Sequence record: PV683228.1
Reading direction: 5' to 3' (one strand)
From: Escherichia phage EcF-vB
Length of the DNA stretch: 64,000 nt
In this document: positions 5,416 to 8,144 of the stretch, piece by piece
Position numbering within the stretch: the first letter of the stretch is position 1
Layout of the letters: each line of letters opens with the position of its first letter
Notes under the pieces: model-generated
The model's database searches: none
Told to the model about the DNA's origin: nothing
The model's input: only the letters and a program-made list of their open reading frames with translations
Position numbers and translations under genes: made by a program

Positions 5416-6429
5416 ATGGGGTTAATGATTTTAGAGGGAGTAAAAATGGAAAACGTAGATTTTAAAAACTTACATTTAGTTGGTGATACAGAAACTGATG
5501 GTTTACTCCTTGAGTTCACTAAAGTGCACGTAATGGCTTTCGCAGACTATAAATCTGACGATGAAGAGCCGCCTGTATGGGTCTTTACAGATGAGCCTAT
5601 CCTCGGTCACAAGTATACCAAGTACATTAAAGGTGGTTTACGTGAAGGTGTTGAGTTTGCGTTAAAGGCAAAACGTCTTTGCATCCATAACGGTCTCGGT
5701 TATGACTGGTGGGTTTTCAATCACATTGCACCTGATTTATGGAACTTTGATAATCCAAAGTGTAAACCGTGGAGTAATTTCTTTCAGGATTCTCTCATCC
5801 AGTCTCGTGTTCAGTGGATGGATAGACCAACTCCAAAGGGTTATAAAGGTGCTCATGGTTTGGCTGCATGGGGTGCTCGTGTTGGTGTTCGTAAACCAGA
5901 GATTGAACATTGGGGTGTGTGGAATGCAGAAATCTTTACTCGTGTTGTAGAAGATATCCGTATTAACGCCAAAACTAAACGGGCACTTGATAATGAATAC
6001 CTCAAGCTTAAGAAGTGTGGCATAGACACTTATGAAACCTACATGCGAGCTAAAGAGACATCTTTCTGGATGAGCCAGCAAGCTATCAATGGCTGGAAAG
6101 CTGATAAAGAGCTTATGGAGTTCCATGTAAAGGAACTTGACAAGTTGACTAATGAGCTTGCTTCAGAGGTTGAACCACATCTGCCTCCAACTATTAAGAC
6201 TAAAGGTAAAGTTACTGGAGAAGAGTTTGCAAAAGCTTGGAATGAGTATGTTGAAACATTTGGTCATGCAGATGGACTGAAGAGAATTACCAAGTACCCT
6301 AAGACAAAGTACCGTCAGCAGGTACGTAATGGTGAGATGCAGACATACGAAATCAAACCATTTGGTAAGCCAACTACAAAGATTTTTAACATTGAAAAAG
6401 AAATTGCTATACCCCAACCAACTCTGTAA
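5416..6429 (+). CDS. DNA polymerase, family A, N-terminal 3'-5' exonuclease part (frame-offset fragment)
   Basis: 337 aa; Exo I-like motif LVGDTETDGLL; ends at TAA 6427-6429 while the next polymerase ORF is open in another frame from 6396. Confidence 0.75.
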   Translation: MGLMILEGVKMENVDFKNLHLVGDTETDGLLLEFTKVHVMAFADYKSDDEEPPVWVFTDEPILGHKYTKYIKGGLREGVEFALKAKRLCIHNGLGYDWWVFNHIAPDLWNFDNPKCKPWSNFFQDSLIQSRVQWMDRPTPKGYKGAHGLAAWGARVGVRKPEIEHWGVWNAEIFTRVVEDIRINAKTKRALDNEYLKLKKCGIDTYETYMRAKETSFWMSQQAINGWKADKELMEFHVKELDKLTNELASEVEPHLPPTIKTKGKVTGEEFAKAWNEYVETFGHADGLKRITKYPKTKYRQQVRNGEMQTYEIKPFGKPTTKIFNIEKEIAIPQPTL

Positions 6430-6461
6430 CTGGTGAAGAGTACAAGGAAGGTTTTGTAGCA

Positions 6462-8144
6462 ATGAAGGATGCTCGTGCAATTTGCAATGAGTTGAATGCA
6501 AAGATTGGTAAGAAGTGCAAAGACTGGAAACCAGTAAAAACAGTCAAAACTGTGAAGTACTATAACAGCCATGTTGTTAACCACTTTGAACTTGAGTCAA
6601 GTCGCTACACAGGTTTGATTGATGCACCATATACACCAATTGAGTTCGAAGTTTCTCGTATGACTCAGGTAGCAGTTGTTAAAGACTACTTGAAATCAGT
6701 TGGTTGGATTCCAGATGACTGGAACTACAAGAAAGACTCAGATGGTCGCCCTGTTAAGGTTTGTCGTTTCAAAGACAACAAAAAGATGATTACCAAGCAT
6801 CCTAAGTGGCAGGAGATGGTTGAACGGTGTGGTTTAAGCTATGTTGAGCACGAAGGTGTACAGTACATTGAGCATAACTGGTCTGTTAAGAAGTACACAG
6901 ATTTGCTTGAACCTTGTCTGATTAGGACTTCACCAAAACTTACTGAGTCATCTTATGATACGATTGAAGGTGAACTTGGACAGAAGATTGCTAAATACTA
7001 CACTTTGATGCACCGACGCAGAACTATTGAGAACTCAAAGGATGATGAGAAAGGTTGGCTAAACCAGATTCGTCCTGATGGTCGCCTTAGTGCTGGTGCA
7101 ATGGTGTTTGGTACTTCAACTGGACGTATGACACAATATGGTATTGTAAACGTACCGTCTGGTGCTGCTGTCTATGGAGCACCTATGAGGGAGGTTTGGA
7201 TTTGCGAGGAAGGGACTAATGTTGTCTCTGTTGATATGAACTCAGCCCAGCTAGTTCTTCTTTGTAACTTTATGGGTGATAAAGAGTTCACTAAAGCGGT
7301 AACACAAGGTAAAGAAGAGATTGAGTTTATTCGTCAAGAAGATGGACGCTATTACTGTAAACATTTTGATGAGTACCTCAACCCAGAGATTGATAAGTAC
7401 CTGCGCTATGACTCTGAGAATGACTTGTACGTTGTCTATTCAGGGACTGATGCGCATACACTGAATAGCATTTACTTTAACTTGAATGATGAGCAGGACA
7501 TCTTGACTTGTCGAGCTACTCAGGATGAGAATCTTCTTCATGAGATTAGCAAAGGTCGCAAGAAAGCTAAGAATGGTATCTATGCACTACTGTTCGGTGC
7601 AGGTGACGAGAAGTTTGCTAAGACGATTAAAGCTGCAACTACTCAGGAAGGTGCACTGACTAAACAGACTTACTTTATTCGTTTGCCTAAAATTAAAAAG
7701 CTGCTAGATGACTTGGAAGCTGACTACAAAGCAACTAAAAAGGCACTTGAAGAGGTGTTTGGTAAGACTGCTGCAATCTCTAAAGGGGGCTTTGTAAAGG
7801 TTGCTGGAGCTTGGTTGTGGTGTAAATCTCCACATAAGTTATTGAATTATTTGCTCATGGGTTCGGAAAGTCAGATTCAGAACGAGGCAATTAACCTTGC
7901 TTGTCGTCGTATGATTGACGAAGGCTTGATGAAGTTGAATGGTCGTAAACCAGCTATTGGTGCTCGCTTACTCTGCGCATATCACGATGAAACGAGTTGG
8001 GAATGCCCAGAAAGTATGACGGCAGAGGTGAAAGCAGTTACTGACTGGTATTATGGGCAAGCTTCTAAGAACTTAGGTCTTAAGAAAGAAACACTTGTTA
8101 CAGGTACTGGTAAGGTTGGTAAAAGCTGGTATGAGGTACACTAA
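6462..8144 (+). CDS. DNA polymerase, family A, polymerase domain (continues 5416-6429 after frame offset)
   Basis: 560 aa; Pol A-like motifs (GIYALLFGAG, CAYHDETSWECPE); frame open upstream to 6396. Confidence 0.8.
   Translation: MKDARAICNELNAKIGKKCKDWKPVKTVKTVKYYNSHVVNHFELESSRYTGLIDAPYTPIEFEVSRMTQVAVVKDYLKSVGWIPDDWNYKKDSDGRPVKVCRFKDNKKMITKHPKWQEMVERCGLSYVEHEGVQYIEHNWSVKKYTDLLEPCLIRTSPKLTESSYDTIEGELGQKIAKYYTLMHRRRTIENSKDDEKGWLNQIRPDGRLSAGAMVFGTSTGRMTQYGIVNVPSGAAVYGAPMREVWICEEGTNVVSVDMNSAQLVLLCNFMGDKEFTKAVTQGKEEIEFIRQEDGRYYCKHFDEYLNPEIDKYLRYDSENDLYVVYSGTDAHTLNSIYFNLNDEQDILTCRATQDENLLHEISKGRKKAKNGIYALLFGAGDEKFAKTIKAATTQEGALTKQTYFIRLPKIKKLLDDLEADYKATKKALEEVFGKTAAISKGGFVKVAGAWLWCKSPHKLLNYLLMGSESQIQNEAINLACRRMIDEGLMKLNGRKPAIGARLLCAYHDETSWECPESMTAEVKAVTDWYYGQASKNLGLKKETLVTGTGKVGKSWYEVH

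Follow-up and report, generated by a model that had tools for sequence, protein, structure and literature searches.

The family A DNA polymerase gene of the window (the whole 64,000-nucleotide stretch of Escherichia phage EcF-vB DNA analysed here, record PV683228.1) is read in two frames offset by one base, at a position where a single G present in relatives is absent. We consider it very probable that this split polymerase is an assembly artefact, a one-base consensus deletion in an ordinary, known Felixounavirus gene. We propose that the real phage would carry one intact polymerase of 909 codons, or 899 counted from its likely start, that the consensus would have left out one G of the purine tract GAAAA[G]AGAAAT (between 6398 and 6399), and that this loss would split the gene on paper only, making a biological mechanism unnecessary. 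The window would then represent a low-accuracy, indel-prone Felixounavirus assembly, most likely long-read and poorly polished; both the cause of the error, in base-calling or consensus, and the sequencing platform are what we infer. An earlier sequence-only reading of this DNA had named a consensus indel error as one option beside a pseudogene and a recoding site, and that option is strongly supported by the alignment, the relatives, the sibling indels and the inverted arms.

The polymerase gene and the site of the offset

The window is a Felixounavirus (Felix O1-like, Ounavirinae) genome, ~95% identical to Escherichia phage ULIM8 (vB_EcoM_ULIM8), and keeps the Felixounavirus gene order of dNMP kinase, two small genes, polymerase, small ORFs and DNA ligase. 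Its polymerase is divided on paper into 337 aa and 560/582 aa, encoded by ORFs 5416-6429 and 6396/6462-8144 (Table 1). The downstream frame is closed by TGA 6393-6395 and open from 6396, so the ORF positions bear out where the sequence-only reading had ended the first frame and opened the second; the overlap string that it quoted is one 'a' short of the 34 nt at 6396-6429. Joining the frames takes a -1 shift or, equivalently, the restoration of one base. The joined gene, earlier put at about 895 aa, has 909 codons from ATG 5416 or 899 from ATG 5446, which is likely the true start, with a GAGGGAG ribosome-binding site ahead of it, and is better supported than ATG 5416. The translation of 6396-8141 matches Pfam PF00476 (DNA_pol_A) with E = 2e-15 and 57.1 bits (cut-off 34.3), close to the 55.7 bits of the intact ULIM8 polymerase. 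The RNase_H_2 match of the N-terminal fragment stays below threshold (17.4 bits, cut-off 22); an exonuclease-like DTETDG motif visible in its translation makes the label 'exonuclease' plausible.

Alignment to intact phage polymerases, a check that the sequence-only reading had suggested, places the shift between 6398 and 6399. A four-way alignment of the window with three relatives (6340-6480, 142 columns) contains a sole gap, at this single G, with TTGAAAAGAGAAATTGC in the relatives against TTGAAAA-AGAAATTGC in the window. At the site itself the relatives read GAAAAGAGAAAT and the window GAAAA-AGAAAT, so that the variant lacking the G is GAAAAAGAAAT. The missing base is the third of Lys codon AAG 328 in the relatives, and one single deletion only, that of this G, leads from their sequence to the window's. 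In the blastn comparison with ULIM8 one nucleotide is deleted at window ~6399 (ULIM8 34918), and in tblastn residues 1-328 of the ULIM8 polymerase align to 5416-6399 in frame 1 and residues 328-909 to 6396-8141 in frame 3, each at 99% identity. Past codon 328, the final 9 codons of the upstream ORF (EIAIPQPTL, then stop) are out-of-frame read-through. The whole span 5416-8144 measures 2729 nt, exactly one base short of the 2730-nt CDS of relatives. A CCCC run within the overlap, which had been proposed as the location of the shift, is indeed present, but the missing G lies beside the A-run at 6395-6399 and the only indel of the alignment is 13 nt upstream of the CCCC run, which is ruled out; the run arose by a substitution (ACACC to ACCCC) that leaves the amino acid of the polymerase frame unchanged (ACA to ACC).

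Table 1. Coordinates of the two polymerase fragments, of the offset between them and of further genes carrying small deletions.
Feature	Position	Strand	Observation
N-terminal polymerase fragment	5416..6429	+	337 aa from ATG 5416; stop TAA 6427-6429
C-terminal polymerase fragment	6396..8144	+	Frame one base back; first ATG 6462; stop 8142-8144
Actual frame-offset site	6395..6400	+	Window AAAAAG, relatives AAAAGAG
CCCC run	6412-6415	+	Not the shift site; A-to-C substitution, relatives ACACC
DNA ligase (9610-10742)	~9829		1-nt deletion, CTCTTTG to CTC-TTG in a T-run; two frames; intact in ULIM8
160-aa gene (one of two structural genes)	~30348		1-nt homopolymer deletion
125-aa gene (one of two structural genes)	~32557, ~32654		Two 1-nt homopolymer deletions
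Large terminase (36414-38024)	~37129, ~37534, ~37894	-	Three 1-nt deletions; gene in four frame segments, all with 95-99% identity to ULIM8
tRNA-Phe	39378-39452	-	75 nt against 76 nt in ULIM8; 1-nt deletion
tRNA-Lys(UUU)	42388-42462	-	75 nt against 76 nt in ULIM8; 1-nt deletion at 42438
Lysin	~48560		1-nt homopolymer deletion; not in the inverted second copy at ~57657

Were the missing G real, a low-efficiency -1 slip of tRNA-Lys on A_AAA (6396-6399) could give a variant with a recoded replication gene and a free exonuclease fragment, a conclusion that we regard as exceedingly improbable. In such programmed -1 frameshifting or low-level slippage on the A-run, which we find barely credible, tRNA-Lys would move from AAA 6397-6399 to AAA 6396-6398 and translation would continue with AGA AAT TGC, giving the trans-frame peptide ...NIEKRNCYTPTNSVTGEEYK. 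By analogy with E. coli dnaX, the products would be the full-length polymerase of the relatives and a truncated, exonuclease-only protein, an outcome to which we assign a minimal probability. The -1 frame does open exactly at 6396, the A-run at 6395-6399 adjoins and enters the overlap, the slipped product IEKRNC is that of the relatives, and the phage itself encodes a tRNA-Lys(UUU); this geometry, however, is automatic once one base beside an A-run has been deleted.

The features by which a frameshift site is recognised were searched for, and neither an in-frame slippery heptamer, nor conservation of two frames among relatives, nor a stimulatory downstream structure was found. The in-frame codons are ATT GAA AAA GAA, with no X XXY YYZ heptamer, and only AAA can re-pair, through a single tRNA. 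The 81 nt downstream (6400-6480) fold at -17.9 kcal/mol, which is not unusual (z = -0.93, with 35/200 shuffles as good), and the site is absent from 215 DNA-level and 302 protein-level relatives and from three contig collections. A run of five A's would be too short for transcriptional slippage to be efficient, and the other broken genes of the window cannot all be recoding sites. The likeness to the dnaX site (A AAA AAG) is that a replication gene contains an A-rich stretch of lysine codons and needs a -1 shift to continue. The polymerase site differs in having neither a heptamer in frame nor conservation, and neither an SD upstream nor a hairpin downstream that would stimulate a shift; moreover, the dnaX shift truncates its protein, while the shift here would be needed for the full-length enzyme. 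On these grounds the recoding site that the sequence-only reading had entertained is set aside. In a literature search for frameshifting in Felixounavirus polymerases, the one paper to contain the terms, a study of gene essentiality in Bas63 (PMC11482910), is silent on the subject.

Relatives and selection on the restored gene

The deletion is private to the window among the sequences compared. A megablast search with 5300-8300 matched 261 phage records, nearly all Felixounavirus, from Escherichia, Salmonella, Shigella and Citrobacter hosts; the top identity was 95.7%, and most alignments paired 3001 window bases with 3002 bases of the record. Matched over the whole gene with the polymerases of Felixounaviruses (ULIM8 WPJ69845.1, UAB_Phi87 AFQ96139.1, wV8 and Felix O1), the window is alike at ~95.7% of nucleotides and 99% of amino acids and differs in the lack of one G, which turns a 909-codon ORF into two. 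ULIM8, UAB_Phi87 and VpaE1_ev035 annotate the polymerase as one CDS of 2730 nt (909 codons) or of 2700 nt from the second ATG, and this, together with the PF00476 match, confirms the earlier view of a family A polymerase lying in two frames with a single-base offset and derived from one original gene. A narrower query over the site (6340-6460) matched 215 phage records by DNA, all at no more than 98.4% identity and none with the deletion, and among the 60 site matches listed every one pairs 121 window bases with 122 of its own. The 25-mer of the deleted variant had no exact match in IMG/VR viral, GTDB genome or JGI metagenome contigs; the intact 26-mer, the positive control for these scans, matched 10 IMG/VR contigs. 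An exact look-up of the three ORF products in a collection of 15 billion proteins gave no match.

The relatives also bear on whether the gene might be naturally split into separate exonuclease-subunit and polymerase-subunit genes, as in some other phage groups. Both ORFs are long and the break separates the exonuclease-like N-terminal region from the Pfam polymerase domain, which would suit such an arrangement. A 120-aa query spanning the junction was nevertheless contiguous, in one piece and one frame at 80% query coverage or more, in 302/302 records, reaching distant Ounavirinae-like phages; it holds even where identity falls to 39-45%, in Erwinia, Pectobacterium and Hafnia phages. None of these 302 records shows a homologue with a natural split at this position, the finding that the sequence-only reading had said would overturn its interpretation. 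The two ORFs overlap out of frame and lack intergenic adaptation, the 22 residues from the break to ATG 6462 are conserved coding sequence, and ATG 6462 with its SD-like context is ordinary coding sequence in intact relatives. We therefore hold a natural split to be scarcely credible.

Selection on the gene speaks to the possibility that it is an old pseudogene, left in a phage remnant that is decaying, for which the several frameshifted genes of the window could be cited. When the G is put back, the resulting 909-codon ORF has zero internal stops. The restored gene differs from that of ULIM8 at 120 nucleotides, 104 of them (87%) at third codon positions, and its codon differences comprise 103 synonymous and 9 non-synonymous changes; 3' of the break alone there are 82 synonymous and 7 non-synonymous differences, with no further stops. 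Both polymerase halves have thus evolved as one translated gene, which is therefore not an old pseudogene. The protein identities of the fragments (99%) and the copies of the duplicated region, which differ by indels only, also stand against decay. No relative shares the shift, and Felixounaviruses are virulent phages. We judge the pseudogene option of the sequence-only reading to be extremely unlikely.

Indels elsewhere in the window and between the duplicated arms

A consensus deletion, the explanation that we favour for the polymerase, has many counterparts. Comparison of the whole window with the full ULIM8 genome by blastn and tblastn identified ~10 such errors across the window, which break conserved genes that ULIM8 has intact (Table 1). 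Over 48.7 kb there are 28 isolated indels of 1-2 nt in well-conserved context, 19 of which are deletions in the window, and most sit in runs of 3-6 identical bases. No phage would propagate with three terminase frameshifts and with its polymerase, ligase and lysin broken. At ~62711 the tRNA-Lys region occurs a second time, at full length and without the deletion at 42438.

The same comparison yielded several observations on the genome at large. As in ULIM8, a cluster of 26 tRNAs is present, at 38452-43581. At ~10850-10862 the window lacks ~1.7 kb of ULIM8 (39365-41060, three small hypothetical genes), an absence that probably reflects ordinary accessory-gene mosaicism between Felixounaviruses. 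The tail-fibre region (15967-17953), the usual host-range hot spot, is far diverged from ULIM8, with patchy matches of 85-87%.

The window contains an internal control in the form of an ~11-kb inverted duplication, in which 41150-52236 is mirrored by 53295-64000 across a spacer at 52237-53294. The window tracks the ULIM8 plus strand to ~83828; from window ~52246 onward it has turned round and follows the minus strand, starting at ULIM8 ~84853 and ending at ~71340. The duplication resembles an artefact of long-read assembly, either a foldback or a chimera, and near the turn-around (51300-52240) arm 1 falls to raw-read-like quality. The arms are 99.8% identical, with indel-only differences over most of their length; between 43996-49207 and 62216-57008 (5215 columns) there are 0 substitutions and 8 indel events. 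This indel-only disagreement between two copies of one DNA is direct evidence of consensus indel errors. One disagreement, at 51982/53537, is an event of the polymerase type (AAGAGA against AA-AGA). The indel error rate is roughly 0.4-0.8 per kb, and 1-2 errors are therefore expected in a 2.7-kb gene.

Two further features were noted in the arms. At ~49204, arm 1 lacks ~720 bp (ULIM8 79493-80212) that are found in arm 2 (56289-57008) and in ULIM8, which is another inconsistency between the copies. Two direct repeats of ~250 bp, ~70% identical (47391-47639 and 47892-48137), surfaced as cross-matches between the arms; they lie inside a 377-aa gene (47019-48149) and may be tandem domain repeats.

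At this one site the sequence would be the same had a real, very recent mutation arisen in the sequenced population, and we weighed a genuine recent frameshift in a defective or minority genome, such as a rearranged foldback molecule, which would leave the polymerase truncated or in two pieces with a restart at ATG 6462. The large inverted duplication could in principle be an aberrant replication product, and ATG 6462 lies 33 nt past the upstream stop with the SD-like AAGGAAGG ~10 nt upstream. Intact relatives, however, have the very same SD-like sequence and ATG as part of the codons for KEGFVAM, so these are not an adaptation. At least 8 other 1-nt deletions affect conserved genes, three of them in the large terminase, and no replicating lineage could carry them all. 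The arms of the duplication disagree by indels only, pointing to consensus errors, and relaxed selection is not seen. We consider a recent mutation very unlikely, with a small share of the probability.

Three of our observations are those by which an artefact is recognised: the indel is peculiar to the window while all relatives agree, similar indels interrupt further conserved or essential genes, and duplicate copies within the assembly differ by indels only. Like the errors of long-read (nanopore or PacBio) drafts, the indels of the window are isolated 1-nt events with a bias to deletions and to homopolymer or low-complexity tracts; many conserved genes are broken, and substitutions between duplicate copies are essentially nil. 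Two published sources document such gene-fragmenting indels in long-read assemblies, and the window fits what is described for unpolished ones (PMC12007338, PMC9262707). The polymerase site differs from a typical long-read error in that a lone G flanked by A-runs, and not a base of a pure homopolymer, is missing. It counts against an artefact that the dropped base is not a strict homopolymer-length miscall, although the same type of loss recurs between the arms of the window.

Consequences for this genome and its polymerase

The value of the window in this respect lies in quality control only. Until they have been resequenced, frameshifts, split genes, odd tRNAs and recoding candidates taken from it should all be presumed to be artefacts. 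The polymerase beneath the split is a family A enzyme of the ordinary kind already known from Felixounaviruses.
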